From an uncultured Bacillales bacterium (GTDB lineage: Bacteria > Bacillota_I > Bacilli_A > RF39 > UBA660), in contig CAMKGA010000002.1 of NCBI GenBank assembly GCA_946412015.1, positions 6,930-70,929 of the forward strand: a stretch of 64,000 nucleotides of DNA. Direction: 5' to 3'. Positions 9,158-51,794 of the stretch are shown here, one piece after another. Position numbers and translations under genes: made by a program. Position 1 is the stretch's first letter. Each line of letters opens with the position of its first letter. A model generated the notes under the pieces. The model was not told where the DNA came from and did not search any database. It was given only the letters and a program-made list of their open reading frames with translations.

Positions 9158-9201
9158 GATAAACTTAATATAAAGGTAATATATAAGATAGGAGAGTGTT
9201 T

Positions 9202-10182
9202 ATGAAAAGAAAAAATGGATTTACCTTAATAGAACTAATAGCAGTATTAGTAATTTTAGCAATTTTAGCTTTAATAGTCACACCACTTGTAATGAATATT
9301 ATAAGAAAAGCTAGAATTTCAGCGGATAAAAGAAGTATTGATGCATACGGAAGAAGTGTTGAACTTGCAATAGCTACTTATCTATTGGATAATGGAGATT
9401 TTCCAACAGATATATCACAATTATCTATTGAATACTCAGGAGATAGAGTAGAATGTGAAACAACACAGCTTAATTCAGATTCATCAGTATATCTAACTGG
9501 ATGCACAGTTGGAGGAAGAAATGTAGATTATACATATGGAACAGATAAGACTCCATCAACACCAACATATACAGCGTATAGTGTAGGAGATTCAGTTACA
9601 TATAATAATGTAGATTATTATGTAATTAAAGATTCAGGAACTAATGAATCTATTGTTACGTTATTAAAAGCAGAGCCACTTACAGTAGATGAAGTTAATC
9701 TTTATGGTGTTGGTCATATAAATAACTATAGCACTTATGTATCGCAAGGAACTGCATTTGATGTAAAAGGAGATGGCTCGATAGGTGGAATGGCATATTA
9801 TAGTAGCTCATCTTGTGCATATACAAACGAATCTATTGAAGATGGCTGCATATCAGACTATGAATCGTCAGATATTAAATACGTTGTAGATTCTTGGGCT
9901 AGTGCAAATGGACTTTCAGATGCGCGATTAGTAACATATGATGAGATATACAATAATTCTGAAGAAAAGCTTAGTTGTGCATATAGTTGTTTTAATTCAC
10001 TTGTTGTAAAATATGATTGGTTATATAGTAGTGAATATGCTTATTGGGGAATGACACCATCATCTGCTGCTAAAGTTTACTACGTTCATGGTAGCGGGAG
10101 GTTACAGGATGTACAAATTTACTGGAATGATATCGCTATTCGTCCTGTCATAACTCTAAAGAAAAGTGCATTAGAAAATTAG
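9202..10182 (+). CDS. Prepilin-type N-terminal cleavage/methylation domain protein (type IV pilin/pseudopilin-like) with a large C-terminal domain
   Basis: MKRKNG/FTLIELIAVLVILAILALIV is the class III signal (G-1, F+1, E+5). ATG 9202 follows AGGAGAG. Paralogue of 60962..61894. Confidence 0.85.
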   Translation: MKRKNGFTLIELIAVLVILAILALIVTPLVMNIIRKARISADKRSIDAYGRSVELAIATYLLDNGDFPTDISQLSIEYSGDRVECETTQLNSDSSVYLTGCTVGGRNVDYTYGTDKTPSTPTYTAYSVGDSVTYNNVDYYVIKDSGTNESIVTLLKAEPLTVDEVNLYGVGHINNYSTYVSQGTAFDVKGDGSIGGMAYYSSSSCAYTNESIEDGCISDYESSDIKYVVDSWASANGLSDARLVTYDEIYNNSEEKLSCAYSCFNSLVVKYDWLYSSEYAYWGMTPSSAAKVYYVHGSGRLQDVQIYWNDIAIRPVITLKKSALEN

Positions 10183-10253
10183 TAGATAAGATACTAATTT
10201 TTTATTTGTATTTATTAAATTATATGATATGATTAGCTAAAGGAGAATAATAT

Positions 10254-11237
10254 ATGGAAGATGAAGTAGAATTTGTTGATGGTACTGATATAGAAATAAG
10301 TGAAGAGTTAGAAAAGGAACTAGGTACTTTTTTGGAACCTGGTGAACATGGCAGTAAATATAATTATACTTACGTACCACTTGAATATGTAATTAAGGAA
10401 CCCTACGAATATATTATTCCAGAGTGTATTGATGCATGTAAAGCATTTTGGGATAAAAATATAGAGACATTTATGGTTAGTAATTATGATGATGATGCTT
10501 TGTATGTATTAATTATGAATATATCAAAAGAAAATGAAGATATTGTTAAAAAATTAATGAAAGAAGATCCTAGGTATTTTTATGATGCATATAGAGAGGC
10601 TTATGGAATAAGAGTTAATGGAATGAGTAAAGGAGATTCTTTTGAATTATTAACACTTGTTGATGTATTTAAAATGCAAGATACAACGAGATACCAAAGT
10701 GAAGAAGAATATTTATGTGAATATAAAAAAACTGGTGGAGAGATGTATATTGACGATGAAGGGAGAATATTAACTAAAGAAAATCCATTGCTTAAAGATG
10801 CAACTATTACTGATGCTTTATCTGCTAATAATTGTGATAATTTATATATTAAAGAAGAAGGTAGAATATATGAAAATGAATTATTCTTATCATGGCATTT
10901 AAAGTATTTAAAATATGAGATGAATATAGTAAAAAATTATTTAGTTAGTTTAAGAGAAAATAATATAAATAGCGATATAAGTTATATTAGAGATACTTTT
11001 CTTTCTTCAGAAATGGATTTTTTAAAAGAAATATTAAGTAATTATAAAAATAGAGACTATATTAAAAATTTAAATAAATTTAGTAGTGATGCATTAATTG
11101 ATGCTGCTATAAAATTAATGGATAATATTGATAGTGGAGTTTATAGTAAAGATGAACTTGAAAAAATAGAGAAAGATATTATTTTATATTTATCTGCAAT
11201 TATAGATAAAAAAGATTCTAAATCTAAAATAAAGTGA
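10254..11237 (+). CDS. Hypothetical acidic protein (327 aa)
   Basis: Long ORF with RBS AAAGGAGAATAATAT-ATG. It ends 6 nt before the DUF1848 gene. No motif recognised. Confidence 0.65.
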   Translation: MEDEVEFVDGTDIEISEELEKELGTFLEPGEHGSKYNYTYVPLEYVIKEPYEYIIPECIDACKAFWDKNIETFMVSNYDDDALYVLIMNISKENEDIVKKLMKEDPRYFYDAYREAYGIRVNGMSKGDSFELLTLVDVFKMQDTTRYQSEEEYLCEYKKTGGEMYIDDEGRILTKENPLLKDATITDALSANNCDNLYIKEEGRIYENELFLSWHLKYLKYEMNIVKNYLVSLRENNINSDISYIRDTFLSSEMDFLKEILSNYKNRDYIKNLNKFSSDALIDAAIKLMDNIDSGVYSKDELEKIEKDIILYLSAIIDKKDSKSKIK

Positions 11238-11243
11238 TTTTGT

Positions 11244-12122
11244 ATGATACTTAATGTAAGTGGAAGAACTGATATAGTTGCTTTTTATTCTAAATGGTTT
11301 ATGAATAGATATAAGGAAGGGTTTGTAGATGTTAGAAATCCTTTTAATCCAAAATTAGTTAGTAGGATATATTTTAAAGATGTAGATTTAATAATGTTTT
11401 GTACTAAGAATCCTATACCTATTATTAAACATTTGAAAAATATTAATAAACCAATCTTATTTCATATAACACTCACGCCATATAAAAATGATATTGAGGT
11501 AAATGTTAAGAATAAAGGTTTAATAATTGAAGCAATAAAAAAGGTATCAGAAATTATAGGTATCGATAATGTTGTAGTTAGATATGATCCTATTTTTTTT
11601 AGTGATAAATATAATATTGAATATCATAAAAAAGCGTTTTCTCATATGTGTGAATTATTGGATGGCTATGTTAATAAAATAATTGTATCTTTTATGGATG
11701 AATATAAGAATGTATTAAACAATTATAATATACTTAAATATAGAAATTTCAAAGAAGATGACTATAAAGAGATAGGACTATCTTTTAGTAAGAGTGCAAA
11801 AAAGCATAATATGACAGTACAAACTTGTTACGAGGATAGAAATTTAGAAGAATATGGTTTTGTTAAAGGTGAATGTTTATCTACAACTTTAGCTTATGTT
11901 TTAACTGGAAAAAAATATAACACTTGGAAAGCTAGAAAATGTAGTTGTGCCCAGATGGTTGATATAGGAGTTTATAACACATGTAAACATTTTTGTAAGT
12001 ATTGTTATGCTAATTATGATGAGAAAAAAGTTAATATTAATTATTTGAATCATGATGTTACTTCATCATTACTTATTGGTCAAATTGAAGATTCTGATAT
12101 AATTAAAGTTAGAAATAAATAA
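11244..12122 (+). CDS. DUF1848-family protein (C-terminal radical-SAM-like Cys cluster)
   Basis: N-terminal ILNVSGRTDIVAFYSKWFMNR and the overall length fit DUF1848 as I remember it. The C-terminal CSCAQ...NTCKHFCKYCYAN contains CX3CX2C. Confidence 0.6.
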   Translation: MILNVSGRTDIVAFYSKWFMNRYKEGFVDVRNPFNPKLVSRIYFKDVDLIMFCTKNPIPIIKHLKNINKPILFHITLTPYKNDIEVNVKNKGLIIEAIKKVSEIIGIDNVVVRYDPIFFSDKYNIEYHKKAFSHMCELLDGYVNKIIVSFMDEYKNVLNNYNILKYRNFKEDDYKEIGLSFSKSAKKHNMTVQTCYEDRNLEEYGFVKGECLSTTLAYVLTGKKYNTWKARKCSCAQMVDIGVYNTCKHFCKYCYANYDEKKVNINYLNHDVTSSLLIGQIEDSDIIKVRNK

Positions 12123-12142
12123 ACTAGATATCTAGTTTTTTT
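12122..12142 (+). terminator. Terminator after the DUF1848 gene
   Basis: Palindrome AACTAGAT/ATCTAGTT followed by T7. Confidence 0.7.
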
Positions 12143-12176
12143 AATATTTATTTGTTATTATATAGATGGTGATACT

Positions 12177-15100
12177 ATGACAGATAGTGAAAAGAGAATA
12201 ATTATAGATGCATTTTTAAATAAAGATTATAAAATAATAATTAATTCCTTTAGTTATGAAAGAAGAAAAGAACTATTTCAATTTATAGAACAATTAGGAG
12301 ATGAGATTGAAAATGAATTAGGTACTGTTATACCAGATATAGATTGTGATAATTTTATAGCATCTTTTTTTACCAATGATGAGGCTATAAGTTATTTTTA
12401 TGAAACAGACGATGTAGATATAAAAAGAAATTTAATGTACTGTATAAATGATGATGATTTAAAAATAGAATTAATAAAAAAAAATAAAACTTTAACTTTT
12501 TCTATTTTAAAAACACTTTCTAGCGATGAAAAATTATTAGAAGCTATTCATAACCTAGATGATAATTTTAGAGATGCTTGTTTTTATTCCTTTATAAAAT
12601 ATTTCCGTAGTGACGAAAATAAACTTAAATATGTCGAAGATGCTCAAATAAATGAATTAACTATGTTGGAAGCATTGATAGAATCTTTAAATGATATTGA
12701 TTTAAAGTATTATGCATTTAATAAATATATTAAGAATAATTATCCTAAGTATGAAAAGTATGAGTTGTTTCAATTAATTAATAGTATTGATAATCCAAAA
12801 GTAAAAATATCTAAATTTAATGAATTTGTAGATGATTATATTAATAATAAATTTATAATATATTGCCTAAGAATTACAATAAAAGGAAATCTAGAATCCG
12901 AAATAGATATTCTATACTTAATTTTTCAATTAACAACTAATCTTGCAGATGAATATAAAGTAGATATATTTAATATTTTAGAAAAAATAGAATCTGTAAG
13001 AGAAGTAGATTTTAAACATATTAATAATATAATAAATAATATCAGTGATTTTAGTAAATTAAGTAGTGCATCAAATTACATTTTATCTAAATATATAGAA
13101 TATTATCAAGATAGAATTAATTCTAATCATTTAGTATTATTTGTGGATAAATTTGGGTTAGAGTCTTTAAAATATTTAACTAATAAAAATATAGTTAGTA
13201 TTATTAATATGAATGATGACAATTTTAGTAAATTTTTAAAAATATTTAATGAAAAATTTACTAAGCTAGATAATCAACTTGTAAATACTGTATATAATTC
13301 TTGTATTCAAAGAGAATATAGAATTAAAAATCAAGAGGAGTATAATATATTTAGTTTAATTAAAGATGCTATAGATGAAAAAAATATAAAAGTTTTAAAA
13401 GAATTATTGATTAAAATAGATATATTTAAAATGTTTGATGGAGATATTGATACTATTATAAATAGAATAATTAATAGTGATAATATACAAGAATATTTAG
13501 ATAAAATTAATATTTTATCTAATAGTTATATAAAAAGAAGAAGAGAAGAATATATAGAATCTAGAAAAAAAGATTTTTATAGCGAAGTTAAGTTAGAAAA
13601 AAGATATGAAAAAAATGCAGCACTAAAGTATTATTTGTCAACTATGTCATATGAAGATATTGATTCATTTTTAAAGCTTATTGATAAAATCGATATTAAT
13701 AAAATAGATAGTGATATTAGAGATTTAATTAATGATAAAGATAAACTAATTAGTATTTTAAAATTTAAGATAAATCCTAGAGAAGAAAAATATACTGGGG
13801 ATAAAATAGATATAAAAAGATTTAGTAAAATACTAAATTATTTGTATGAGAATGGTATGATTATACTGCCTGGTAATTTAGAATTAAATTATGAATATTA
13901 TCCAAAAAAAATTGAATATTCTAGATTTTTGCCTGCGTTAATGGATATAAATGTTAATAATTTAGTTAATAATATATTTTCAGATAATAATACTTATCAA
14001 GAATTCTTAAATTATTTATTAAGATATAAAATATTAGGGTACGGTGATACTTTTAATAATATATTTAAATTAAGTGATGTTGATTATGGAAATGATACAT
14101 TTATAGGTTTAATATCATATTTTGATAAAATAAAAGAAAGAATTAATAGTAAAAATGAACTTATGTCTTTAATTGACTGGAGCAATTGCTATAGTTCATT
14201 ATCTTCAATTTATGGAATAGTATTAGGAATTGAAGATTTTGGGCTTATAAAATCAAATCCAGGACCTAATTCTGCAAGTTTAAATAGGCAGGAAAGACTT
14301 GATGAAGCATTGAAAAAGATTGTAGTTATGTATAAAAGAAGCTATGTTAGTGTTCCGACAATTAACCAAGAGGTTAAATTAAAATCTGGTAAAAGTATTC
14401 ATGTTACTCTAGGCGAGGTTACAGATACTAACAATTTAACTTTAGGTGAGAGAACTGGTGCTTGCATGCGTATAGGTGGGGCTGGAAGTACATTACTTGA
14501 TTTTTGTATTGAAAATGAAAATGGATTTCATATTATATTTAGAAATTCTAATAATAATTTTGTTTCTAGAGTGTCTGGATTTAGAAATGGAAATACTGTA
14601 TTTTTAAATCAACTTAGGTTTAGTAAAGATGATAATTATGAAACAGAAGATGTAATCGATGCCTGTTTACTTGTAGCAAAAATGTTAATTACAAAAAGTA
14701 AGGATAGTTCATATCCTATTGATAATGTAGTAATATCTGCAACTCAAGCAATGCTTGGCGTTTCTAAAGAAGAAGATTTAAAGATTGCGAATCCAACTGA
14801 TAATTTAGGCTATTTTTATTCCGATGTTAAAGATAAAGCAGTAGTAATAGCTACAAGAAGTAAAACTTCATCATTTGTACCGATTAATCTTAATCAAGAT
14901 GGTATTCCTAAGTATGATACTGTAAGAGGAAAAGTTAGTAAAATTACTGATAAACTAGAGATTTTACAAATAATAAATAAAACTAGAATTATTAATAATT
15001 TATTAAATGGAGAAGAAATAGATAATATTGAAACTTTACAAGAGGATTATATAAATAATGTATCATATGTAATTAGTGGAGAAGATTTTTATATATTAGT

Positions 15101-15245
15101 TGATAATAATGATAATATAATAGAAGAATTTATTATGGATAAAAGAATTAATAATAATAGGACATTAAATGAGATAAATAGAGTGAAAGAAATTTATTTG
15201 AAGAAAAAAGCTGTTGATACTTATGAAAATGGTTATAATATATAA
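12177..15245 (+). CDS. Large hypothetical protein (1022 aa): helical N-terminal two-thirds plus a more conserved-looking C-terminal domain
   Basis: Uninterrupted 3-kb ORF with an RBS (GGTGATACT-ATG). No signal peptide or TM segment. The C-terminal segment [35 protein letters not shown]...[19 protein letters not shown] is less low-complexity than the rest. Confidence 0.75.
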
Positions 15246-24307: not shown

Positions 24308-25928
24308 GGTGAAGTAAAGTAATTGTTGGAAAATTTTTAGAGGAAATACAAGTTATATAATTAATTTGTATTTTTTTATATTCTTTTAGATAGAAAATAA
24401 TCTAATCTATAGTTATCTTTTAAATTAAAATTAGAATTATTAATATAGTGTTCAATATTATATTTATTATTAGGATTAATTAGTATATTAGATTGATTTC
24501 TAAATTTAATTTTTTATATGCTGAAATACCTGATTTAAACTCATAATATATTTCTTCAGTTAATTTTATTTTATTTGCTTTCATAGTAAGTAGTTGAACA
24601 ATATTCTCTAAACCAGTTTCAGAATAAGAATGAGGTCTGGAAGTAATAAATTTGGCATATTTGTTTGAAATATGACCTTCCATAGAACAAGGACATTTGC
24701 AAAGTGGATGATGTAGATTAATTATACCTTCTATATTTTCAATTAAAAAGTTCTGAACTTTAATTATATCTGCTTTTTGTTCTGAAAATTTATCTATTTG
24801 AGAATTAACTAATAATTTAAATTCATTTATCATTTTATTTCTTAAATAAGAATCAGCAATTTTTGTTAATAAAGTGTCTTTTTTAAATATATAAGCTAGT
24901 TTTTTATTAAAATAATGAAATGGATCTAATACATAAATGGCATTTGAAAAAGCAACATCATATCCTTTTATTCAATGGCCACCATCACCAGAAATAAATA
25001 TTGTTGGTTCTTTATTTAAATCATATTTTTTATTTAGATAGTTATAAGTTTCTTCCCATAACTTATCAGTTTTAAGTATTGAAGAAACAAGATAATGTTG
25101 TTCCTTAAGTTCTTTTTTCTTAACAAAATCTTCTTTGTGACCTTCATGAGTTAAAATAACAGGAACAATTCTATTTTTAGTACCAAGATTTCTAGATTGA
25201 AGATTAGCATGTACTTCATCTGCTTCAATATAAATAACATCAGGAGTATCTTTCTGCTTAACTTTTTCAATATAATTGTAATTTATATTTTGAATTTTAG
25301 ATGAAATTGTCTGCCATTTAACAATGTAGTTAGGAATAGAATTATTAGCGGACCAATAATAACCATTATCTAAAGCATTATTTATAAATTTAACTTCAGC
25401 GGCAAGGGTCATTTTAGCCCATTTAGCAATACCTAGATAATCTTCTAAGTAACTGTAATATTTATATTTGCCATTTATCTTATTTTTAGATTTATAGTAA
25501 GTTTTATTAAAAGTTAATAATCCTAAAGAAGTAATCAAAGTTCTTTCCCTGGTTTACCACACATAGTATTTTTCTTTTCTAACTTTAGAATTTTTATATT
25601 GTAAATCTAAATATTCTAATATTTGCCTTAAAATATCAATATTTAATTCGTTAGTAGACTTTAATAAATTATGTTCAATATGATGTAAATATTGATTATT
25701 TACTAAAATGTTAGATAAATGGTTAACAAATGACTGAAATAGTGATATGATATTCATTGAGAAAACAACTCCTTTAATTAACCTTTACACTTTGAGTGTT
25801 TATACAGGTTATTGTTTATATGTTCAAATTAATTATATAACATTAAGTTATATTTATATAGGAGGTTTTCTCTTTTTTATTATAAAATTATTTTTCCCAC
25901 ATCTATTTTACTACATCTTTTTATCCTG
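24308..25928 (-). mobile_element. Decayed ISLre2-family (UPF0236-type transposase) insertion sequence
   Basis: Three consecutive minus-strand ORF fragments of one transposase. The identical 11-mer AGTTTTTTAGG flanks the unit at 24297-24307 and 25929-25939. The ends show only loosely inverted similarity (GGTGAAGTAAAGTAATTGTTGG against the reverse complement of CCCACATCTATTTTACTACATC). Confidence 0.7.
24480..25757 (-). pseudogene. UPF0236/ISLre2-type transposase, broken into at least 3 frames
   Basis: The fragments 25757-25554 (..LDLQYKNSKVRKEKYYV), 25538-24972 (LLTFNKTYYKSK..YLEDYLGI..VIYIEADEVHANLQ..IFISGDGG) and 24833-24480 match the order of UPF0236 proteins, but they lie in different frames with stops between them. 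Confidence 0.75.
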
Positions 25929-26006
25929 AGTTTTTTAGGAGTAATATTGAAATTCTTCTTTTTTTATTGTAAAATATTATTAATAATAAATAATTAGAAG
26001 GGGTTT

Positions 26007-27671
26007 GTGATTATGACAAATTCGGCTAAATTAAATATAAAGAGAGTAGTAGCAAAACAAAATTCAGTAAAACCAAAATTTAATAATTATAATTCATATG
26101 GAATTAAAAAAGTTAATTATAAAGCAAATACGAATAAGCTACCGGATAATAATGATTCAGAATCTATTGATTTTAAAATTGAAAATAGTGATTTTTCAAA
26201 ACTTACTGATTATCAGAATGTATCTTTAACTGCTATTGATTTTATTCAATATTTAGCTATTAATGGATTTGATATTAATAGGTTAAAAGGGAAAACGATA
26301 AGTGAATGTGTAGAAATATTTAGTGAAGGTAACGATGAATATCATGTTGGCTTTTTAAAAGGTCTAATGGATAATGGTTTTTCAGATTATAAAATAGTAG
26401 AAGTAATACAAGATGGAAGCTTTGATGCGGTTGTATTACAAGATCCATCTGGAAATTATAGGATATTTTATAATTCTACTAAGAATTATGGAGATTATTC
26501 AGATGATATTGGAGATTATTTATATGATGCAAGAAATATTGTTGAAGAACAATTTGTAAATGGCTGGATTGATTCCTTACTTGGTAATGCTTTTGAAACA
26601 ACTGGTACATTTGCTGGAACTGCATTAGGAATTGCTGCGAGTATATTGGGGGCTCCTCAACTTATGGCTGCAGGTGTTGTAACAGGAAAGGTTTTAGGAG
26701 CTAATTTGTATAAAAAAGCAGTTGATGCTATTAGAAATGGGCTTGATCCTGATTCTGATTCATATCTTATTGAATTTATTGAGAATAAATTAGATGATTC
26801 AGGAATGGATGAATCTATGAAAAAACAACTAATATATACAATAAAGAATGGTGGATTAAATGGTCAATATCAAGATCAGCAAAATAAAGCTAAAGCGCTT
26901 GCAGATAAATACTTTAATACAGCCTTGAGTAAAGGTAAAAAACTAAGTGTTCAAGGTTATTCTCTTGGTGGTAGTTTAACAGAAGCGGCCTACCTTTCTT
27001 TATGTGATAGAGAAGGAGCAAATGAGGTATTAGACGGAGTTGTTCTATATAATCCATATCACGATAATCTTACAACAGAGGAAGCAAATAAAATAAAAAA
27101 TGCTAATGGTTTTGAATTATATTGTGCTGAAGGTGATATGGTATCAACAGTATTTAATTATGATGATTTTAAGGATGATGCAAAGTATCTGTATATGGAT
27201 TATAAAACATTGCTTAAAAAGAATATAGGGAATATTGAAAATGATGGATTCAAAATGGATCAATTATCAAACTTTTCAGCAATTTTTGGGAATACCCATT
27301 TACCACATCCGTATTTAAATGAAAGGTTTGAGGGAACCAGCAGTCAAATTGCTTTTGCTGAGGATGGTTCTGTTAGAAAAAATGTTAACGGATATGATGT
27401 TCACGGTCATTCATTTGAAGAATTGTCTCAATATTTATTTGGTGGAGATAAAATAGCTAATGTTGATGAACTTGGTAAAGCAATTGTTTCAGAGGGTGCT
27501 TCAACTTATTTAGGAATAAATCTTACAGATGGTGATTTAGAAAATCCAACTAATGCTATTCCTGCGGCTGGAACTAAAGCTTTAACTGCTAAGATTGCAA
27601 AAATAGCTTTAGAATTGTATTTAAATTCTAATGCTAGTGGTGGTTCTAGTCATGGTGGAGGAGATTTATGA
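26007..27671 (+). CDS. Lipase/esterase-like alpha/beta-hydrolase protein (DUF2974/class-3-lipase-like), no signal peptide, Gly-rich C-terminus
   Basis: Nucleophile elbow VQGYSLGGSL (GxSxG), preceded by AVVLQDPSGNYRIFYNST. There is an internal hydrophobic Gly/Ala-rich stretch, and the protein ends SGGSSHGGGDL. The start is GTG 26007 or ATG 26013, after GAAGGGG. Confidence 0.65.
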   Translation: MIMTNSAKLNIKRVVAKQNSVKPKFNNYNSYGIKKVNYKANTNKLPDNNDSESIDFKIENSDFSKLTDYQNVSLTAIDFIQYLAINGFDINRLKGKTISECVEIFSEGNDEYHVGFLKGLMDNGFSDYKIVEVIQDGSFDAVVLQDPSGNYRIFYNSTKNYGDYSDDIGDYLYDARNIVEEQFVNGWIDSLLGNAFETTGTFAGTALGIAASILGAPQLMAAGVVTGKVLGANLYKKAVDAIRNGLDPDSDSYLIEFIENKLDDSGMDESMKKQLIYTIKNGGLNGQYQDQQNKAKALADKYFNTALSKGKKLSVQGYSLGGSLTEAAYLSLCDREGANEVLDGVVLYNPYHDNLTTEEANKIKNANGFELYCAEGDMVSTVFNYDDFKDDAKYLYMDYKTLLKKNIGNIENDGFKMDQLSNFSAIFGNTHLPHPYLNERFEGTSSQIAFAEDGSVRKNVNGYDVHGHSFEELSQYLFGGDKIANVDELGKAIVSEGASTYLGINLTDGDLENPTNAIPAAGTKALTAKIAKIALELYLNSNASGGSSHGGGDL

Positions 27672-27700
27672 TAGAATTATAATGAAATAGGAGGTTTTAT

Positions 27701-28177
27701 ATGAATATTGAAGGTATATATGAACATTCAAAAAAGAATAGTATAGGGAAAGAAAAAAAACAAAAATTAGTAAAAAGAATAAAAAGAATATCTACAGAAG
27801 TACTTGTATCTCTTATAGCAATAACAAGTGGGGTTAGTCTAACAGCTTGCCAGGATCCTAATTATACAACTAAAATGGTTTCATTATATATATATGATGC
27901 ACAAGAAATATTTGATAAATATGGTATGGATACTAGTCGAAAATATGGTGTTGAGGATTATATTAAGATTCCAGATATAAATGATGATAATTTAATTGGA
28001 TTTTATGAAATGCTAGGAAGAGAAGAATGTGAAAAAATAGCTCAAGCATTAGGATACAATGGGATTGATAATTATTTGATAAAAAATGGATATTTAAATT
28101 CTAATGGAGAGGCAAGTATTAAAGCATGGCGTGAATACTATGCTAGTAAGGCATTAGGAGGAGAAAAAACAAAATGA
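27701..28177 (+). CDS. Putative lipoprotein (158 aa)
   Basis: A basic n-region and hydrophobic segment are followed by the lipobox SLTAC (VSLIAITSGVSLTAC/QDP). RBS TAGGAGG. Confidence 0.7.
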   Translation: MNIEGIYEHSKKNSIGKEKKQKLVKRIKRISTEVLVSLIAITSGVSLTACQDPNYTTKMVSLYIYDAQEIFDKYGMDTSRKYGVEDYIKIPDINDDNLIGFYEMLGREECEKIAQALGYNGIDNYLIKNGYLNSNGEASIKAWREYYASKALGGEKTK

Positions 28178-28401
28178 GTATAGAAACTTTAGATATAGAT
28201 GGTAAAGAGTACTATGTTGTAGAAAAAATAAATAATAATAATAACTTATACTATATATTAATTAATACTATTGATAAAAATGATTTAATAATTAGGAAGT
28301 ACTTAAAAGAAGAAAATGAAGAGTATATTGTTGGATTAGATAATGAAAAAGAATATTATGATGTTATGAAAAAATATAATGATGGGGATAAAAATGAATA
28401 A
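28174..28401 (+). CDS. Small acidic protein (75 aa), DUF1292-like pattern
   Basis: ATGA overlap with the upstream stop. IETLDIDGKEYYVVEKI...LYYILIN...IIRKY...EYIVGLDNEKEYYDVMKKY resembles the DUF1292/UPF0473 layout. The assignment is weak. Confidence 0.5.
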   Translation: MSIETLDIDGKEYYVVEKINNNNNLYYILINTIDKNDLIIRKYLKEENEEYIVGLDNEKEYYDVMKKYNDGDKNE

Positions 28402-28660
28402 TCAATTTTTACCAATAGGAACGGTTGTTAAACTCATTAATGAAGGCAGTAAAATTGTCATAATTGGATATCTTATGAAAAATAAACAAGGATATACATA
28501 TGATTATTGTGGATGTAAATATCCAATGGGTGTTATAGATAACTATTATAATTATTATTTTAATAAATCTGATATAATAGAGATAATAAAATTAGGATTA
28601 GTAGATAAGGAAACTAATGATGTCTTAAATAAGATTAATATTGCTAAATTAGCTAGTTAA
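28394..28660 (+). CDS. DUF4176-like small protein
   Basis: FLPIGTVVKL..GSKIVIIGYL......YDYCGCKYPMGV......YFNKSDIIEIIKLGLVDKE matches the DUF4176 signature as I recall it (LPLGSVV.L, IIG, DY.g..YP.G, FN..dI). ATG 28394 follows GGGGA. Confidence 0.65.
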   Translation: MNNQFLPIGTVVKLINEGSKIVIIGYLMKNKQGYTYDYCGCKYPMGVIDNYYNYYFNKSDIIEIIKLGLVDKETNDVLNKINIAKLAS

Positions 28661-33814: not shown

Positions 33815-35560
33815 ATGACTCAGGAAGAGTTAATTAGAAGGATTAGAGAGCTAGAACAAGAAAATGGTCTTTTAAGAAGTCGATTAAGAGAAATTGAGAC
33901 TAATAGAACAGTTAGTTATGATGATTTAAAAAATGAATATGATGGTGAATTAGAAAAAAATGAAAATATAAATGATGTATCATACACCACACCACCAGTT
34001 ATAATAGATACATCAAAAAGTGCAAATAGTTCGGTTAGTGAGACTAAAGATAATAAGAAAGAAAATAGAAGTGAACTAAGAAGACGACTATTTCCATGGC
34101 TTAATAAAAAAAGTATTTCCAAAATTAGTGATGAACAAGAAGAATTTGTTGATATAAACCAATTTGCAACAACTGACAAAAAAGGTAGCAATAATCAAAG
34201 TGATGATACTGTAACCGAAGATAAGTCACTTGATCTATCAGATTTTTCATTTGTCGATATTAATGAAGAAGAGAACAAAAATCAAGAAGAAAATGAAAGC
34301 AAGCCTGAAGATGAGAATGTTAATGATGAAGCTGTAACTGAAAATCAGCCACTTGATTTATCAGGATTTTCATTTGTTGATATTAATGAAGAAGAAAACA
34401 AAAATCAAGAAGAGAATCAACAAGAAAATGAAAATGGTGATGATTTTTCTGGTTATTACTTTGATGATGATGAAGTTGTAGAAAATGAAGATAATAATAA
34501 AAAAAGAAGATTTCCATTTTTTGGAAAAAAGAAAGAAAAAATTGATTATCAACCGAAACATATGAGAAAAACTAAAAAATTAGAAAGAATTCGTGAATCT
34601 AAATTTTTTAAGAAAATTAAATCAGCGCTTAACAATAAAGCAGTAAAAGTTATTGCAGCAGTTTTAATAGCTCCTGTTGCAATTGGTGGAATTATACTTG
34701 CAGCAAAATTATCAAATGATGAGAAAAATAATGATCATGATAATACATCTAATGTTTTATATGATAATTCAGAGGTTCCATCAACTACAGCTGCTAACGA
34801 GATTAGCCTAAGCGCAAAAGATGTCGCATCTTCTGTTGATAAAAAAGATGATAATAGTGATAAAAAAGAAACATCAACTAGTGATGAAGTAGTAGGTAGT
34901 TATGAATATGCAAGCAATGAAGAGGATATTAAAGAAAATGATATACCAGAATCATCTAGTGATGAAGTAGTAGATAGTTATGAATATGAAAGTAATGAAG
35001 AAGATATTAAAGAAAATTCTAGACTAGAATCGACTAGTGATGAAGTAGCAGATAGTTATGAATATGAAAATAGTCAGGAAGATATTCAAGAGCATGAATC
35101 TTTAAAATCGATTGATGATGAAGCAGTTATTAGCGGTGAATACGAAAATAATCAAGAATACATTCAAGAAAATAATAGATCAGAATCAACTAGTGATGAA
35201 GCAGTTGAAAGTGACTTAACAGATTATACAATAGTAGATGATGGTTATAGTGTTGAATTTGGTTATGACATAGGGGATTCAGTTCATTTTGATGGGCCAT
35301 ATATTTATAGAACAAGTATTGATGCAAAAAATGATACTAATAGATATAATCCATTATATCCTTCAACTGACGAGAGAGTAATCTCATTAATTAGGCTTGT
35401 TTCTCCAGATGGAAGTGAAAAAATAACTATAAATGCTAACAATAAAGATAAAAAGGATCAATTAGAAGCTCAAGGTTGGACAATTGAATCTTACAATATT
35501 GATGATTTAACAAATGGTGTTACTAATGAAGGATGGGCACCTGGAAAAAGTTTAAAATAG
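33815..35560 (+). CDS. Single-pass membrane protein with a coiled-coil N-terminus, two families of acidic tandem repeats and a C-terminal globular domain
   Basis: EELIRRIRELEQENGLLRSRLREIE is followed by a duplicated LDLS(D/G)FSFVDINEEENKNQEEN unit. A basic stretch and the TM segment AVKVIAAVLIAPVAIGGIILAA come next. These are followed by 4.3 copies of a 26-aa repeat and about 110 non-repetitive residues. Confidence 0.8.
   Translation: MTQEELIRRIRELEQENGLLRSRLREIETNRTVSYDDLKNEYDGELEKNENINDVSYTTPPVIIDTSKSANSSVSETKDNKKENRSELRRRLFPWLNKKSISKISDEQEEFVDINQFATTDKKGSNNQSDDTVTEDKSLDLSDFSFVDINEEENKNQEENESKPEDENVNDEAVTENQPLDLSGFSFVDINEEENKNQEENQQENENGDDFSGYYFDDDEVVENEDNNKKRRFPFFGKKKEKIDYQPKHMRKTKKLERIRESKFFKKIKSALNNKAVKVIAAVLIAPVAIGGIILAAKLSNDEKNNDHDNTSNVLYDNSEVPSTTAANEISLSAKDVASSVDKKDDNSDKKETSTSDEVVGSYEYASNEEDIKENDIPESSSDEVVDSYEYESNEEDIKENSRLESTSDEVADSYEYENSQEDIQEHESLKSIDDEAVISGEYENNQEYIQENNRSESTSDEAVESDLTDYTIVDDGYSVEFGYDIGDSVHFDGPYIYRTSIDAKNDTNRYNPLYPSTDERVISLIRLVSPDGSEKITINANNKDKKDQLEAQGWTIESYNIDDLTNGVTNEGWAPGKSLK
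34877..35215 (+). repeat. In-frame 78-bp tandem repeat, about 4.3 copies (coding)
   Basis: Units start at 34877, 34955, 35033, 35111 and 35189, with consensus (T/S)SDE(V/A)V.SYEYE.N.EDI(K/Q)EN...ES. Confidence 0.9.
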
Positions 35561-46534: not shown

Positions 46535-47266
46535 GTGAAATTGAATAATCGTGGATTTGCTATTTCTACTATGATGTATATGATTTTAATATTAGCTATT
46601 ACATTAACTGCTACTTTTTTAATCATATTAAATGGTAGAAGTAAAGTACTAAATAATTTAAGGAATAAAGTACAAAATGAAATAAATGATAAAGGAAATG
46701 TTAATGATTATATTTGTATTGGTAATAATAACGGAAATAATCAAGTAGGAGATAAGTATACTTGTACTGTATCTAATACGGAAGAATATGATTTTTATGT
46801 TATTAGTAGTGATTCTGCAAGTGTTAATTTAGTAATGTCAGAAGCACTTACTTTTAGTAAAGGAAATTATGGTGCTGCTGATGATGTAAAAACAGAATCT
46901 AAAGTTGCGTATATTACTGATACAGATTATAGTGTATCTAATGTATATAAGCCTATTACTGCTCTTAAGGTGCTAAAAAGAATTACTGATAACTGGTTTT
47001 ATTTGGATGATAGAACTGACACTGTAAATGATATAGATTATACAGGATATAAAGCAAGATTAATTGCTTTATCTGATATAAATAATTTTGTATCTGAAGA
47101 TAAACTAACAATAGATTTTATTTCTGATACATTAACTAGTACAATTTCTAGTGATAATAATATATATAGTATTAGTGATAATACACTAATAGATGATAAG
47201 GATGTTACTGATGAATACAAAGTTGTACCGATTATTACTGTTGGTGTTGATAAAATTAAAAATTAA
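46535..47266 (+). CDS. Pseudopilin-like protein (degenerate prepilin signal, no Glu+5) sharing the C-terminal module of the two other pilin-like paralogues
   Basis: MKLNNRG/FAISTMMYMILILAITL. DFYVISSDSASVNLVMSEAL parallels DYYVIKDS...VTLLKAEPL, and the C-terminal VVPIITV parallels IRPVITL. Confidence 0.6.
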   Translation: MKLNNRGFAISTMMYMILILAITLTATFLIILNGRSKVLNNLRNKVQNEINDKGNVNDYICIGNNNGNNQVGDKYTCTVSNTEEYDFYVISSDSASVNLVMSEALTFSKGNYGAADDVKTESKVAYITDTDYSVSNVYKPITALKVLKRITDNWFYLDDRTDTVNDIDYTGYKARLIALSDINNFVSEDKLTIDFISDTLTSTISSDNNIYSISDNTLIDDKDVTDEYKVVPIITVGVDKIKN

Positions 47267-47336: not shown

Positions 47337-47553
47337 AATTTTAAAAACTTTGAACTTGAGGAGTATATTATATTTAATTTATAGAGAGTTATCATTTGGT
47401 GGAAGATAATAATTAAAGTAATAGAAGGTAGCAAGGGAGTTTAATATTTGAATTAAGTAGAATGTTACGTTACATGCGTTAAATGTTTAAGGTAGTTTAT
47501 ACTACGAATTAAGGTGGTACCACGCCAAGCGTCCTTATAAGGATGCTTTTTTT
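47337..47553 (+). promoter_or_regulatory. T-box riboswitch leader (probable Val specifier GUA)
   Basis: Stem I AGAGAG (47383-47388) and GGTGGAAG distal motif. Candidate specifier GTA followed by A at 47418-47421. The conserved T-box AATTAAGGTGGTACCACG lies at 47507-47524. The terminator stem GCGTCC/GGATGC plus T7 lies at 47530-47553. The operon ends in valS. Confidence 0.88.
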
Positions 47554-48617: not shown

Positions 48618-49269
48618 TATAATAGATTTTTATATGTTTACAAATATATTAAAAAATAAACTTAGAACGGGATGGGTTGAAATAGAAATTAGTAAAGAAA
48701 GAAAAGAGAGTATTGCAGAACATATATATGGAACTTTAATGCTTGCAATAGCAATAGATAGTGAATATAAACTAGATATTGATATGTTAAAAGTATTAAA
48801 AATGCTATCTTTACACGAATTAGAAGAAATACTTATGCCAGATTATACAATAAGGTCTAATATTACAATAGATGAAAAAAGAAAAAATGGTAAAAAGAGC
48901 GTTGAAAAAGTTGTAGATGGTCTAATAAAAAAAGAAGATATTATAAATCTATTAGATGAGTTTAATGAACGTGAAAGTAAAGAAGCTAAGTTTTGTTATT
49001 TGATTGATAAAATAGAATGTGACTTTCAAGCTAAATTATATGATTTAGAAGGGGTTATGGATTTTGAAAAATCAAAAGAAGATTTAGAATATTATGGTGA
49101 TAGAAAAGATGAGATTAATAATAATTCTAAATGTGCAAGTGATTTTTGGATAGAATATGATAGAGTTAGATATCAAGATAATAAAATATTTAAAAGTTTA
49201 ATAGATGATATTAAAAATATAGATACTAATAAATATAAAAAAATAATGGAGGAAGAAAATATATGCTAG
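48607..49269 (+). CDS. HD-superfamily hydrolase (YfbR-like 5'-nucleotidase family, HD_3 type) with HE instead of HD
   Basis: LRTGW, ESIAEHIYGTLMLA, LSLHELEEILMPD, YLIDKIECD. Collinear with YfbR metal ligands except for the D to E change. Confidence 0.7.
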   Translation: MNNNIIDFYMFTNILKNKLRTGWVEIEISKERKESIAEHIYGTLMLAIAIDSEYKLDIDMLKVLKMLSLHELEEILMPDYTIRSNITIDEKRKNGKKSVEKVVDGLIKKEDIINLLDEFNERESKEAKFCYLIDKIECDFQAKLYDLEGVMDFEKSKEDLEYYGDRKDEINNNSKCASDFWIEYDRVRYQDNKIFKSLIDDIKNIDTNKYKKIMEEENIC

Positions 49270-51794
49270 ATAAGAAATATAATCATAATAAAGTAGAAGA
49301 GAATAAATATGAAAAATGGCTTAGTAAAGATTATTTTAAGTGTGAAGATGGAATTAGTAACAAAAAATCATTTTGTATAGTATTACCTCCACCAAATGTA
49401 ACAGGGGTACTACATTTAGGACATGCTTGGGATGTAACATTACAAGATATTATTATTCGTTATAAGAAAATGGAGGGTTATGATACATTATGGCTTCCTG
49501 GTATGGACCATGCTGCAATTGCAACTGAAGCTAAAGTTGTAAAAAGATTAAAAGAAAATAATATTAATAAATATGAATATGGTAGAGAAAAATTTTTAAA
49601 TGCTTGTTGGGATTGGACTAAAGAACACGGCGATATTATACGCAAACAGTGGGCTAAAATGGGTATTGCTCTAGATTATTCTAAAGAAAGATTTACTTTA
49701 GATGAAGGATTATCTAAAGCTGTAAAAAAAGTTTTTGTTGATTATTACAATGAAGGGTTAATATATCGTGGTGAGAAAATAATTAACTGGGATCCAGTAG
49801 CTAAAACTGCATTATCAAATGAAGAAGTTATATATAAAGAAGAAAAAAGTGCTTTTTATCATTTAAAATATATAATAGATGGAACAGATGATTATTTAGA
49901 TGTTGCAACCACTCGTCCTGAAACATTATTTGGAGATACTGCAGTTGCAGTAAATCCTAATGATGATAGATATAAACATCTAATTGGGAAAAATGTTATA
50001 CTACCTCTTGTTGGAAGATTAATACCAATTATAGCAGATGAACATGCAGACCCTACTAAAGGAACAGGTGTTGTTAAAATTACACCATCACATGATCCTA
50101 ATGACTTTGAGGTAGGCCTAAGACATAACCTTGAGAGAATTAATGTTATGAATGATGATGCTACTATGAATGAAAATGCTCTAAATTATTGTGGTATGAC
50201 TCGTGAAGAGTGTAGAGAAGAAATGTTAAAAGAACTAGAAAAATTAGGATTACTTTTAGAAGTTGAACCATTAGTACATGAAGTTGGACACAGTGAAAGA
50301 ACTGGTGTAATGGTAGAGCCAATGATAAAAAAACAATGGTTTGTTAAAATGCGCCCATTAGCAGATAAAGTATTAGAAACACAAAAGAAAAAGGATGAAA
50401 AAGTTAACTTTGTACCTACAAGATATGAAAAAGTTATGAATCACTGGATGGAAATTACATATGATTGGTGTATTTCACGTCAATTATGGTGGGGACATAG
50501 AATACCTGCTTGGTATAAAGGTGATGATGTTTATGTCGGAATAAATCCTCCTAAAGAAGATGGATGGGTACAAGATGAAGATGTACTTGATACTTGGTTT
50601 TCATCTGCACTATGGCCATTTGCAGCATTAGGTTGGCCTGATAATACAGAAATGTTAAAAAAATATTATCCAAATCAATGTTTAGTAACAGGATATGATA
50701 TTATACCTTTTTGGGTTAATAGAATGACATTTCAAGGAGAAAAATTACTTGGTAAAAGACCATTTAAAGATTGTTTAATTCATGGATTAATAAGAGATAA
50801 GCAAGGTAGAAAATTTTCTAAAAGCCTAGGTAATGGAATTGATCCATTTGACATGGTAGAAAAGTATGGAGCAGATGCTTTAAGATATTATCTTGCAACC
50901 GATGTCGCACCAGGTACTGATATGAAATTTGATGAAGAAAAAATTAAATCAGCATGGAACTTTATAAATAAAATATGGAATGCCGCAAGATTTGTTATAT
51001 CAAATATTGAAGATTTAAAAGAAATTAATTTAGATAATTTAAAACCAGAAGATAAATGGATACTTACTAAATATGAAAAATGTATTCATGAAGTAAAAAA
51101 ATTTATGGATAAATATCAATTTAATAATGCTGCTGCATCCATCTATGAGTTTACTTGGAATATGTTCTGTGATAATTATATAGAAATGGCTAAATATTCA
51201 ATAGATACTATAAGTACTAAATCAACATTATGTTTTGTACTTACAGGAATATTAAAAATGTTACAACCATTCATGCCATATGTAACAGATGAGATTTATT
51301 CAAAACTTCCTATAAAAGAGAAAGAAGATATAATGATTTCATCATATCCAAAATACAGTAAAAAATATATATTTACTGATGCCGAGATTGCAGTAGATGA
51401 CCAAATTGAATTTATAAAAAGCTTTAGAAACATAAAAGCAGAAAATAATATTACTAAAGAAGCAAAGATAATGTTTGATACAGATGATGATAATGATTTA
51501 ATTGTAAATATGCTTAAAATAAAAGATAATGTTGTAAAAAAACCACTTGGTATGAAAGCATATAAAGTATTCTCAAGAAGAGTAAAAGCACAAATTTTCT
51601 TTGAGAAAGTTGAAACAGAAGCAGATAAAAAATTAAAGGAAGCACAAATAAAACTATTATCTTCATCAATAGAAAGAAGAGAAAAATTATTATCTAATGA
51701 AAATTATGTTAATAAGGCACCTAAAAAAATAGTTGATTTAGATAGAGCCAAGTTAGAAGAAGAAAAGAAAAAACTAGAATTATTATTGAAATAA
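49263..51794 (+). CDS. valS: Valine--tRNA ligase
   Basis: PPPNVTGVLHLGHA (HIGH), the CP1 editing region TTRPETLFGDTAVAVNP, WCISRQLWWGHRIP, KFSKSLGN (KMSKS) and a C-terminal coiled coil. Confidence 0.97.
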   Translation: MLDKKYNHNKVEENKYEKWLSKDYFKCEDGISNKKSFCIVLPPPNVTGVLHLGHAWDVTLQDIIIRYKKMEGYDTLWLPGMDHAAIATEAKVVKRLKENNINKYEYGREKFLNACWDWTKEHGDIIRKQWAKMGIALDYSKERFTLDEGLSKAVKKVFVDYYNEGLIYRGEKIINWDPVAKTALSNEEVIYKEEKSAFYHLKYIIDGTDDYLDVATTRPETLFGDTAVAVNPNDDRYKHLIGKNVILPLVGRLIPIIADEHADPTKGTGVVKITPSHDPNDFEVGLRHNLERINVMNDDATMNENALNYCGMTREECREEMLKELEKLGLLLEVEPLVHEVGHSERTGVMVEPMIKKQWFVKMRPLADKVLETQKKKDEKVNFVPTRYEKVMNHWMEITYDWCISRQLWWGHRIPAWYKGDDVYVGINPPKEDGWVQDEDVLDTWFSSALWPFAALGWPDNTEMLKKYYPNQCLVTGYDIIPFWVNRMTFQGEKLLGKRPFKDCLIHGLIRDKQGRKFSKSLGNGIDPFDMVEKYGADALRYYLATDVAPGTDMKFDEEKIKSAWNFINKIWNAARFVISNIEDLKEINLDNLKPEDKWILTKYEKCIHEVKKFMDKYQFNNAAASIYEFTWNMFCDNYIEMAKYSIDTISTKSTLCFVLTGILKMLQPFMPYVTDEIYSKLPIKEKEDIMISSYPKYSKKYIFTDAEIAVDDQIEFIKSFRNIKAENNITKEAKIMFDTDDDNDLIVNMLKIKDNVVKKPLGMKAYKVFSRRVKAQIFFEKVETEADKKLKEAQIKLLSSSIERREKLLSNENYVNKAPKKIVDLDRAKLEEEKKKLELLLK

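Follow-up and report, generated by a model that had tools for sequence, protein, structure and literature searches.

The window analyzed here is a stretch of 64,000 nucleotides from an uncultured Bacillales bacterium (contig CAMKGA010000002.1 of assembly GCA_946412015.1), and the element of interest is a group of four genes located on its plus strand between positions 26013 and 28660. These genes probably form a toxin, immunity and chaperone cassette that consists of a lipase effector, a tethered immunity protein, and a small DUF4176 chaperone, accompanied by a DUF1292-like accessory protein. The four open reading frames (ORFs) are co-directional and tightly coupled, and their products are, in order, a 552-amino acid lipase-like protein (26013..27671), a 158-amino acid membrane-anchored protein (27701..28177), a 75-amino acid acidic DUF1292-like protein (28174..28401), and an 88-amino acid DUF4176 protein (28394..28660). 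A first-pass annotation, made from the nucleotide sequence before any database was consulted, had described the region as a candidate toxin/immunity island, and our results are in agreement with that proposal: they include a lipase-like hydrolase that lacks a signal, an adjoining anchored partner, a DUF4176 protein, a conserved gene order, accelerated divergence, and polymorphic leaders. The toxin, immunity and chaperone assignment is well supported because chaperone function has been published for small DUF4176 proteins, with toxins exported by a type VIIb secretion system (T7SSb) as their clients.

The coordinates of the genes bear out the tight packing that had been described for them. The lipase gene and the gene for the 158-amino acid protein are separated by a 29-nucleotide spacer that contains an AGGAGG ribosome-binding site (RBS), the latter gene and that of the 75-amino acid protein share an ATGA overlap, and the 75-amino acid and DUF4176 genes overlap by 8 nucleotides (ATGAATAA), an arrangement given by the start of the DUF4176 gene at position 28394. 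The lipase-like ORF is real, but its length had to be corrected from 554 to 552 amino acids. Judging from the sequence context, translation most likely starts at the ATG at position 26013 and not at the GTG at position 26007 selected by the ORF lister, because a GAAGGGG RBS is located 8 nucleotides upstream of the ATG and gene calls with this start are found on independent metagenomic contigs, while the GTG lies too near the RBS.

Profile searches place the 88-amino acid protein solidly in the DUF4176 family. It matches the Pfam model (PF13780) with an E value of 9.8e-22 and 77.3 bits (cut-off 25) over profile positions 1-71 of 74, and the crystal structure of a small member of the family deposited as 'DUF4176 domain-containing protein' (PDB 9dcs_A) with an E value of 2.3e-10. 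The assignment had been proposed with a profile search named as the test that could overturn it, and it withstood that search. The protein fits the subclass of small members (70-130 amino acids), and its gene is found directly after the immunity/DUF1292-like pair and two genes past that of the toxin, a position conserved in five locus types. The recurrence of DUF4176 genes in T7SSb/LXG toxin neighborhoods, which had been mentioned in the first-pass annotation, has a published experimental basis that ties these proteins to toxin stability and export (PMC12478183, PMC12482557). They are toxin-specific chaperones that stabilize their cognate T7SSb toxins before export and without which these would be neither stable nor exported, and the small members, usually encoded beside the immunity genes of membrane-acting toxins, have been proposed to shield membrane-inserting helices (PMC12478183). 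In Streptococcus suis there is one toxin type per DUF4176 group (PMC12482557), and the middle and C-terminal regions of the glycine-zipper toxin TelE require its DUF4176 chaperone (bioRxiv 10.64898/2026.03.12.711312). A role as toxin-specific chaperone is therefore the putative function of the 88-amino acid protein.

The 552-amino acid protein is, by its motifs, probably a Ser-Asp-His alpha/beta-hydrolase, either a phospholipase or a lipase. The GxSxG nucleophile elbow that had been noticed, VQGYSLGGSL, occupies residues 313-322 (26949..26978) and includes Ser317; its G-x-S-x-G pattern is invariant in 42 diverse relatives. The candidate catalytic acid, Asp375 (EGDMVS, 27135..27137), and the candidate catalytic histidine, His429 (GNTHLP, 27297..27299), follow in the canonical order. 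In sequence sets A1 and A2 all three residues are invariant; in sets A3 and A4 their conservation is complete or no lower than 90%. The GxSxG pattern, Asp375 and His429 are conserved over 42-75 diverse relatives, and His350 (NPYH) is another conserved residue. Pfam searches with this protein produced only sub-threshold matches, located around the elbow, to Cutinase (22.8 bits, cut-off 25.9), Abhydrolase_3 (15.5 bits), and DUF676. The curated thresholds of Lipase_3 (PF01764) and of Mbeg1-like (PF11187, formerly DUF2974) were not reached by the window lipase. Thus, of the DUF2974/class-3 lipase context that had been suggested, what remains is a remote homology through relatives of the protein. 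Searches of the PDB with the lipase sequence, using phmmer and a profile, yielded no link to a solved structure. The AlphaFold2 (AF2) model had an overall predicted local distance difference test (pLDDT) score of 53.5, with values of 77-95 around the elbow. When this model was submitted to Foldseek, the top matches were all alpha/beta-hydrolases (4tgl, 3ngm, 7x0d, 9cys), mostly lipases, headed by class-3 lipases, phospholipase A1, and a type VI secretion system lipase effector; the best E value was 0.04 and none was significant.

The absence of a Sec signal and the basic character of the N-terminus were confirmed. The N-terminus is not hydrophobic, and the first 60 residues include 11 lysines or arginines versus 6 aspartates or glutamates. 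Residues 1-59 (26013..26189) constitute a leader that is predicted to be disordered (pLDDT 24-34, no secondary structure), and the conserved core starts immediately after it with the junction motif DFSKLTDYQNV (26190..26222), which is shared by the relatives. The sole hydrophobic stretch is internal, a Gly-zipper-like hairpin spanning residues 196-229 (26598..26699; maximum Kyte-Doolittle value, KD19, 1.72) and located upstream of the nucleophile elbow and the helices that precede it. The hairpin is kept in close homologues and is missing from relatives P0009 and P0010; the hairpin region of the close homologue P0002 gave only weak, non-significant matches, to Gly-zipper_Omp (E value 0.36) and Gly-zipper_YMGG (E value 0.69). 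We regard this hairpin as a candidate for membrane insertion and also for the role of client of the DUF4176 chaperone. At the other end of the protein there is a predicted helical amphipathic region followed by a Gly-rich tail (residues 484-552, 27462..27668), as anticipated in the first-pass annotation. Residues 484-541 are predicted to be helical with low confidence (pLDDT 39-60), and the tail, SGGSSHGGGDL, shows a recurrent GG..(S)DF/L pattern. No other part of the protein has diverged as much between close homologues, which are 35-39% identical in this C-terminal region.

In the 158-amino acid protein, a hydrophobic segment at residues 29-52 (31-49 by narrower limits) is accompanied by a lipobox, LTAC, at residues 47-50 (Cys50), beyond which about 105 amino acids form an extracytoplasmic domain. 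It had been called a lipoprotein with lipobox SLTAC; the lipobox and the membrane anchor are there, but the lipoprotein status is uncertain. While the lipobox is kept as SLTAC or SLTGC in close homologues, which makes a lipoprotein plausible, an uncleaved signal anchor such as that of TilM, the immunity protein of the staphylococcal toxin TslM, is equally possible. The reasons are that Cys50 is located beyond the usual first 40 residues, that the N-region ahead of the hydrophobic segment is unusually long (about 30 amino acids), basic, and conserved even at a distant locus, and that the homologue at that locus has a non-canonical lipobox, LSMCSC. The protein matched no family in Pfam or NCBIfam (E value ≤ 1) and no sequence in the PDB, and the profiles of the known lipase-immunity families DUF576 (TilA) and DUF1433 (TilM) did not match it either. 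Its own family consists of only 7 clusters in 5.8 billion proteins, all of them linked alleles, and its gene always adjoins that of the lipase. Hidden Markov models of all four cassette components found no additional copies in the window. This anchored partner is the putative immunity protein of the cassette and probably shields the producer.

The tiny acidic ORF pointed out in the first-pass annotation is indeed a conserved gene, whose 75-amino acid product has an isoelectric point of 4.4. Its match to DUF1292 (PF06949; E value 8e-4, 20.7 bits) falls under the cut-off of 24, while its orthologue at the distant loci L003 and L007 scores 25.7 bits, above that cut-off; weak precomputed DUF1292 matches exist for three further orthologues. 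The single-sequence AF2 model (pLDDT 77.7) predicts five strands and a C-terminal helix. A ubiquitin-like fold of the EsaB/YukD type, considered in view of faint RA-domain hits, was rejected since the predicted structure is a five-stranded meander plus a helix and no PDB match was better than an E value of 0.18. All cassettes have this acidic protein conserved, although it does not figure among the described components of type VII secretion systems (T7SSs).

Relatives of the cassette are scarce. A word-indexed search of 5.8 billion proteins identified 12 relatives of the lipase, a survey of 185,579 species genomes identified one locus, in a metagenome-assembled genome (MAG) of a 'Bacilli bacterium' from roe-deer caecum, and JGI metagenomes contributed one 3-kb contig with a relative. 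IMG/VR viral contigs, INPHARED phages and PLSDB plasmids contained no relatives, and a phage or plasmid origin of the cassette was rejected on that basis. The order lipase, 158-amino acid protein, DUF1292-like protein, DUF4176 protein was found at loci L001 and L002 (one same allele), L008, L009, and L012, and at L010 the lipase and the 158-amino acid gene are present and the contig then ends; all related loci of sufficient length thus have this order. A distant version of the cassette occurs in the MAG loci L003 and L007, where the lipase is about 35% identical to that of the window. The order of genes at these loci is a 127-amino acid helical protein, the lipase, a DUF4176 protein, a 189-amino acid protein, a 74-amino acid DUF1292 protein, the orthologous DUF4176 protein, and a third DUF4176 protein. 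The 189-amino acid protein is a homologue of the 158-amino acid partner (32% identity, E value 3e-25) and the 74-amino acid protein is 43% identical to its counterpart in the window (E value 8e-17), i.e., the partners have co-diverged with the lipase. Independent contigs show this order, and so does the locus whose lipase is about 35% identical, which places the arrangement far beyond what could be expected by chance.

In the window and at loci L008, L009, L010 and L015 the cassette occupies a shared chromosomal site, between nrdG-dut and the gene for a Na/Ca exchanger, which permits a comparison of the divergence of the cassette with that of its flanks. The flanking genes are 87% (nrdG), 95% (dut), and 88-94% (Na/Ca exchanger) identical, whereas identity is 65-67% for the lipase core, 77-79% for the 158-amino acid protein, and 69-82% for the two small proteins. 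The cassette therefore diverges much faster than its flanks. At another chromosomal site (rplT ... ruvA), represented by L012 (4368-6303) and also by L011, the lipase gene is frameshifted inside the Gly-zipper region, giving products of 409 and about 237-280 amino acids. The partners of this L012 lipase, an anchored protein with lipobox SLTGC, a DUF1292-like protein and a DUF4176 protein, are intact. Frameshifted toxin genes with retained immunity genes are typical of T7SS toxin loci (PMC13560087), and the L012 allele matches this pattern. The lipase family also varies in its presence or absence.

The lipase core belongs to a small superfamily with a remote relationship to Lipase_3 and Mbeg1-like proteins. 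An exhaustive HMMER search with a profile of the core recovered 95 representative clusters; for 40 of these the E value was ≤ 1e-30. Among the 75 clusters that were scanned with Pfam, the sole recurrent families were Lipase_3 (8 of the 75) and Mbeg1-like (3 of the 75), and LXG was not seen. The N-termini of the superfamily can be divided into helical leaders of about 110-350 amino acids, short non-hydrophobic leaders such as that of the window protein, dockerin-bearing leaders, which are those of the closest relatives of the window protein, and Mbeg1-type starts; almost none resembles a Sec signal. The helical, dockerin-bearing and short leaders all meet the core at the motif (I/V)N(T/Y)SG.F(S/A).(F/L)TD(Y/F)Q, of which the DFSKLTDYQNV sequence is the window version. 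A single enzymatic domain with a fixed junction at which different trafficking modules are attached is the architecture of polymorphic toxins, and the cassette combines the hallmarks of such systems, namely alternative leaders at a conserved junction and an adjacent, co-diverging partner with a putative immunity function. The beginning of the window leader is similar to the leaders found in dockerin-bearing homologues and in many other superfamily members. Over the first 30 residues or so, a loose pattern, M-x-N-(I/V)-x-(P/S)-(I/V)..., followed by (K/N)-phi-(N/K)-phi-(N/K)-K, can be recognized in the window protein, P0002-P0005, P0075, P0083-86, P0095, P0103-107, P0126, P0133, and others. This shared pattern could be a targeting signal or could merely reflect an N/K/S-rich composition.

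The dockerin-bearing relatives deserve a description. Those at the shared site (L010:1194-3368, L008:774-2930, L009:106-2226, and L015:471-2678) are 706-735 amino acids long; a segment of about 170 additional residues, with two dockerin-type calcium-binding repeats, separates their short leader from the core. The match of P0002 to Dockerin_1 reached 29.7 bits, above the cut-off of 22.9, and one remote relative has a dockerin match with an E value of 2.3e-10. The two dockerin-like segments are about 110 amino acids apart and not adjacent, and the dockerin alleles have no Sec signal. The window allele has undergone an in-frame loss of the module. Dockerin repeats are classically found on Sec-exported cellulosomal enzymes, and their occurrence on a signal-less, DUF4176-linked putative toxin is puzzling; the dockerin-bearing alleles may represent a surface-tethered toxin as one possibility. 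Another dockerin-containing protein, of 938 amino acids and cut by the end of the contig, is encoded on the related contig L011 (17019-17137), which suggests that the lineage has a cohesin-dockerin surface system. In addition, contigs L011 and L012 include, at about 9414-14036, a gene for a PrsW protease followed by genes for 708- and 459-amino acid proteins that belong to no family.

A mechanism that would account for the composition of the cassette can be proposed. The lipase, synthesized in the cytoplasm and devoid of a Sec signal, would be kept soluble and harmless by the DUF4176 chaperone, which may cover the Gly-zipper hairpin at residues 196-229 or the amphipathic C-terminal helix. It would then leave the cell via a dedicated non-Sec route, most likely a T7-type system encoded elsewhere in the genome. 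Once outside, the enzyme would attack the membrane lipids of neighboring Gram-positive bacteria, with the hairpin possibly aiding its engagement with the bilayer. The 158-amino acid protein, attached to the producer's membrane from the outside as a lipoprotein or through a signal anchor, would bind and neutralize the enzyme. The 75-amino acid DUF1292-like protein could be a further accessory in the cytoplasm, possibly one that serves the basic leader at the N-terminus of the lipase as an adaptor.

As the export route, a T7-type system encoded elsewhere in the genome is the most likely and most economical one, in view of the association with DUF4176 and of the fact that some relatives have helical leaders. 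Several observations weigh against this route or against the toxin cassette as a whole. No EssC, EssB, EsaB/YukD or WXG100 protein was found among the ORFs of at least 90 amino acids in the 64-kb window, which confirms the absence of T7SS core genes reported for it, or in the flanks of about 10 kb of the related loci. Pfam detected no LXG or WXG100 domain in the window lipase, and ten helical leaders of relatives, scanned at E values ≤ 1, gave coiled-coil noise and no LXG or WXG100 match. No gene for a Lap/WXG100-type partner lies beside the window lipase. The support for lipase activity comes from weak family matches and a mediocre model (pLDDT 53.5, best Foldseek E value 0.04), close homologues have dockerin-like repeats, and orphan immunity arrays were ruled out, as the 158-amino acid family is limited to its 7 linked clusters. 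The export route is accordingly hypothetical: T7SS core genes are missing from the window and from the flanks of related loci, LXG/WXG100 signals from the leaders, and a long helical domain and a Lap-like partner from the window protein. A helical LXG-type domain has about 150-200 amino acids; the window protein has a disordered leader and a C-terminal helical region of about 69 amino acids, and the two small cassette proteins are beta-rich and not helical partners. The LXG-like domain for which a search had been suggested was thus undetectable, and the likeness to the reverse arrangement of TslA found no support. The C-terminal helical region is much shorter than the approximately 150 amino acids of that of TslM (PMC13560087), the variable modules of the relatives are N-terminal, i.e., in the canonical orientation, and there is no WXG100/Lap-like partner. 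Directly upstream of the distant, helical-leader lipase (L003:9612-9995 and L007:9246-9629) there is a gene for a 127-amino acid all-helical protein. It has an FxxxD-like sequence, FKKID, near its C-terminus that recalls Lap-type T7SS targeting partners, and its Pfam matches to WXG100 and YwqH-like are at noise level (E values 0.16-0.21).

These points leave room for other explanations. The cassette could be the same toxin system with an export route other than the classical T7SSb, in which the short basic leader is a new targeting signal read by the DUF1292-like protein, the DUF4176 protein, or both. We regard this as rather unlikely. It is favored by the lack of an LXG/WXG-type domain and of a Lap partner with the window protein and its close relatives, the lack of T7SS genes within the window, the loosely similar short leader on dozens of divergent family members, and the presence in every cassette of an acidic protein foreign to described T7SSs. 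However, the leader 'motif' sits in a strongly N/K/S-biased sequence, some relatives have long helical leaders and a small helical protein encoded upstream, like T7SS substrates, and in the literature consulted for DUF4176 the family is described only with T7SSb. A bolder version of this idea, to which we assign a similarly low probability, is that the rare lipase superfamily of extremely AT-rich uncultured gut and rumen Bacillota represents a new class of exported interbacterial effectors that lacks an LXG/WXG helical domain and is recognized through a short basic leader and a beta-rich DUF1292-like/DUF4176 escort.

The remaining explanations dispense with a toxin. A secreted or surface esterase-lipase with a nutritional role, whose 158-amino acid partner would be a foldase of the Lif or PrsA type that helps the enzyme to fold on the outside of the membrane and whose dockerin alleles would dock on a cohesin scaffold in the rumen in a cellulosome-like manner, is improbable, more so than a toxin with another export route. 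The dockerin type I repeats of close homologues (P0002) and of a remote relative speak for it, as do the further dockerin protein on contig L011 and the weak Foldseek matches, which include feruloyl esterase A and cutinase besides lipases. There is also the precedent of Pseudomonas and Burkholderia, in which a membrane-anchored foldase is encoded next to the lipase gene. Yet a Sec signal, which cellulosomal enzymes possess, is missing from the window protein as well as from the dockerin alleles, dockerin repeats are wholly absent from the window allele, and those of the other alleles are separated by about 110 amino acids. The ectodomain of 105 amino acids is far below the size of a Lif foldase, and a DUF4176 protein, a Gly-zipper hairpin, swapped leaders and a divergence faster than that of the flanks would not be expected with a nutritional enzyme. 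A housekeeping esterase that is intracellular or associated with the membrane, and whose small neighbors have no relation to it, would be compatible with the missing signal peptide and with surroundings that are purely housekeeping (nrdDG, dut, PFOR, aminoacyl-tRNA synthetases), but it is very hard to reconcile with the extreme rarity of the locus (one in 185,579 species genomes and 12 proteins in the word-indexed 5.8 billion). The variation in presence or absence, the swapped leaders, the frameshifted allele, the accelerated divergence, and the strict linkage to a DUF4176 chaperone and an anchored partner point in the same direction, and we consider this explanation highly improbable. A toxin, immunity and chaperone cassette is, for these reasons, the explanation that we favor.

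Signal-less lipase effectors with anchored immunity proteins are known, and so are DUF4176 chaperones; what is new comprises the lipase family, the immunity family and the host lineage, together with the lack of an LXG-type domain, the presence of a DUF1292-like partner, and the existence of alleles with dockerins. Two lipase systems are among the closest parallels. TslM, the toxin of the TslM/TilM/TlaM (Tsl2) system of the Staphylococcus aureus T7SSb, is, like the protein described here, a signal-less lipase-type hydrolase of similar length (536 versus 552 amino acids) with a GxSxG motif and a Ser-Asp-His triad, and both have polymorphic, sometimes frameshifted alleles on variable islands off the T7SS locus (PMC13560087). 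The proven immunity protein to TslM, TilM, is membrane-anchored and resembles the 158-amino acid protein in size (149 amino acids) and topology, with an N-terminal anchor and an extracellular domain (PMC13560087). TslM has a single WXG100 partner (PMC13560087), whereas the partners in the window are DUF1292-like and DUF4176 proteins and the helical tail is about 69 amino acids. Another difference is that the 158-amino acid protein has no DUF1433 match, and the gene orders are dissimilar, til2 being divergent from tslM. The TslA/TilA/TlaA1/TlaA2 (Tsl1) system of S. aureus, Listeria and Enterococcus is also a four-gene cassette, with a signal-less phospholipase exported by the T7SS, an extracellular lipoprotein that confers immunity (TilA), and a pair of small accessory proteins that are helical partners of the toxin, and TslA is active only from outside the cell (PMC10730906). 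In contrast to the cassette of the window, TilA belongs to the DUF576 tandem lipoproteins and has its gene upstream of that of the toxin, and TlaA1 and TlaA2 differ from the beta-rich accessory proteins found here; the Tsl1 families were not detected in the cassette by Pfam or NCBIfam.

The LXG operons with DUF4176 genes (TelA/LtcA, TelB/LtcB, TelE/LcpE, and S. suis LXG1-CT3; PMC12478183, PMC12482557, 10.64898/2026.03.12.711312) share with the cassette the linkage of a DUF4176 gene to a toxin and an immunity gene. They also share the location of a small DUF4176 gene beside the immunity gene of a hydrophobic or Gly-zipper toxin, and the co-divergence of the DUF4176 protein with the toxin. Unlike these operons, the cassette has no LXG domain, no Lap1-4 genes, and no T7SS locus within view, its putative toxin is an enzyme with an embedded Gly-zipper and not a pore-former, and it has an extra gene, the DUF1292-like one. 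As for the enzymatic domain itself, the LTDYQNV..AIDFIQYL sequence of the window core parallels the LTDKQK.LL..LSYLD start of Mbeg1-like proteins (PF11187), the GxSLGG elbow is common to these and the class-3 lipases (PF01764), and remote superfamily members match both Pfam models. The window protein differs from them in an insertion of about 115 amino acids that includes the Gly-zipper hairpin, and in its leader and tail.

The cassette is preceded by a decayed insertion sequence (IS), as had been reported. The three ORFs of 117, 188, and 67 amino acids found on the minus strand at 24480..25757 are fragments of a single transposase of the ISLre2/UPF0236 family, as indicated by partial-range matches to Pfam UPF0236 (E value 5e-19) and NCBIfam transpos_ISLre2 (E values 1.6e-25 and 3e-10). 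This element is a neighbor of the cassette with no functional part in it. It is absent from the equivalent site in L010 and L015, where the lipase gene comes directly after dut. The element is also found, likewise decayed, between dut and the cassette on contigs L001 and L002, which are from two other samples, and it is therefore fixed in the lineage. Locus L008 has a different transposase/integrase-like fragment upstream of the cassette (positions 3-458, minus strand), so the site appears to be an insertion hot spot. The sequence TTGAAA-N17-TAAAAT, at 25947..25975 on the plus strand, had been put forward as the promoter that drives the cassette. The motif is present, but its occurrence does not by itself constitute evidence since such sites have the density expected by chance in this AT-rich region of about 25% GC (38 observed versus 40.1 +/- 5.9 expected). 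Locus L010, which has no IS, retains the intergenic sequence that surrounds the motif, and this conservation provides weak comparative support. Terminator prediction at the cassette found none.

Other features of the window include two prepilin-type proteins (9196-10182 and 46535-47266), each with one N-terminal hydrophobic helix; one has an N_methyl motif (GFTLIELIAVLVILAILA) and the other starts with NRGFAISTMMYMILILAITL. The first of these genes is followed by ORFs of 327 (10254-11237) and 1022 amino acids (12177-15245) that belong to no family, with a DUF1848 gene between them. The 1022-amino acid ORF and those of 581 (33815-35560), 349 (51876-52925), and 630 amino acids (52885-54777) had no NCBIfam match, and the ORFs of 1022, 581, and 630 amino acids had no Pfam match either, the 349-amino acid ORF being outside that scan. 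The four ORFs do not encode EssC-like ATPases since they lack Walker A motifs. A T-box leader at 47341-47539 (Rfam RF00230, 122.9 bits) precedes an ORF of 350 amino acids without family, a gene for an HD-domain protein, and that of a class I aminoacyl-tRNA synthetase (49263-51794).

Antibacterial lipases of T7SSs were recognized only recently, TslA in 2023 and TslM in 2026, as were the DUF4176 chaperones in 2025, and all of this work concerned staphylococci and streptococci. The cassette described here extends the theme of a lipase with an anchored immunity protein and a chaperone to an uncultured, very AT-rich rumen and gut lineage, to a lipase family outside Pfam, and to effectors without a recognizable LXG-type targeting domain, and its conserved DUF1292-like partner is undescribed in such systems. 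If our interpretation is correct, DUF4176 chaperones would serve enzyme toxins with embedded membrane-inserting hairpins, and the cassette would provide a tractable four-gene system in which to study the recognition of effectors that have neither a signal nor a helical targeting domain. Should the effectors instead prove to be read through the short basic leader and its beta-rich escort, an improbable outcome, they would reveal a new mode of substrate recognition by a type VII-like machine or an undescribed exporter, and would give the DUF1292-type proteins their first functional context.

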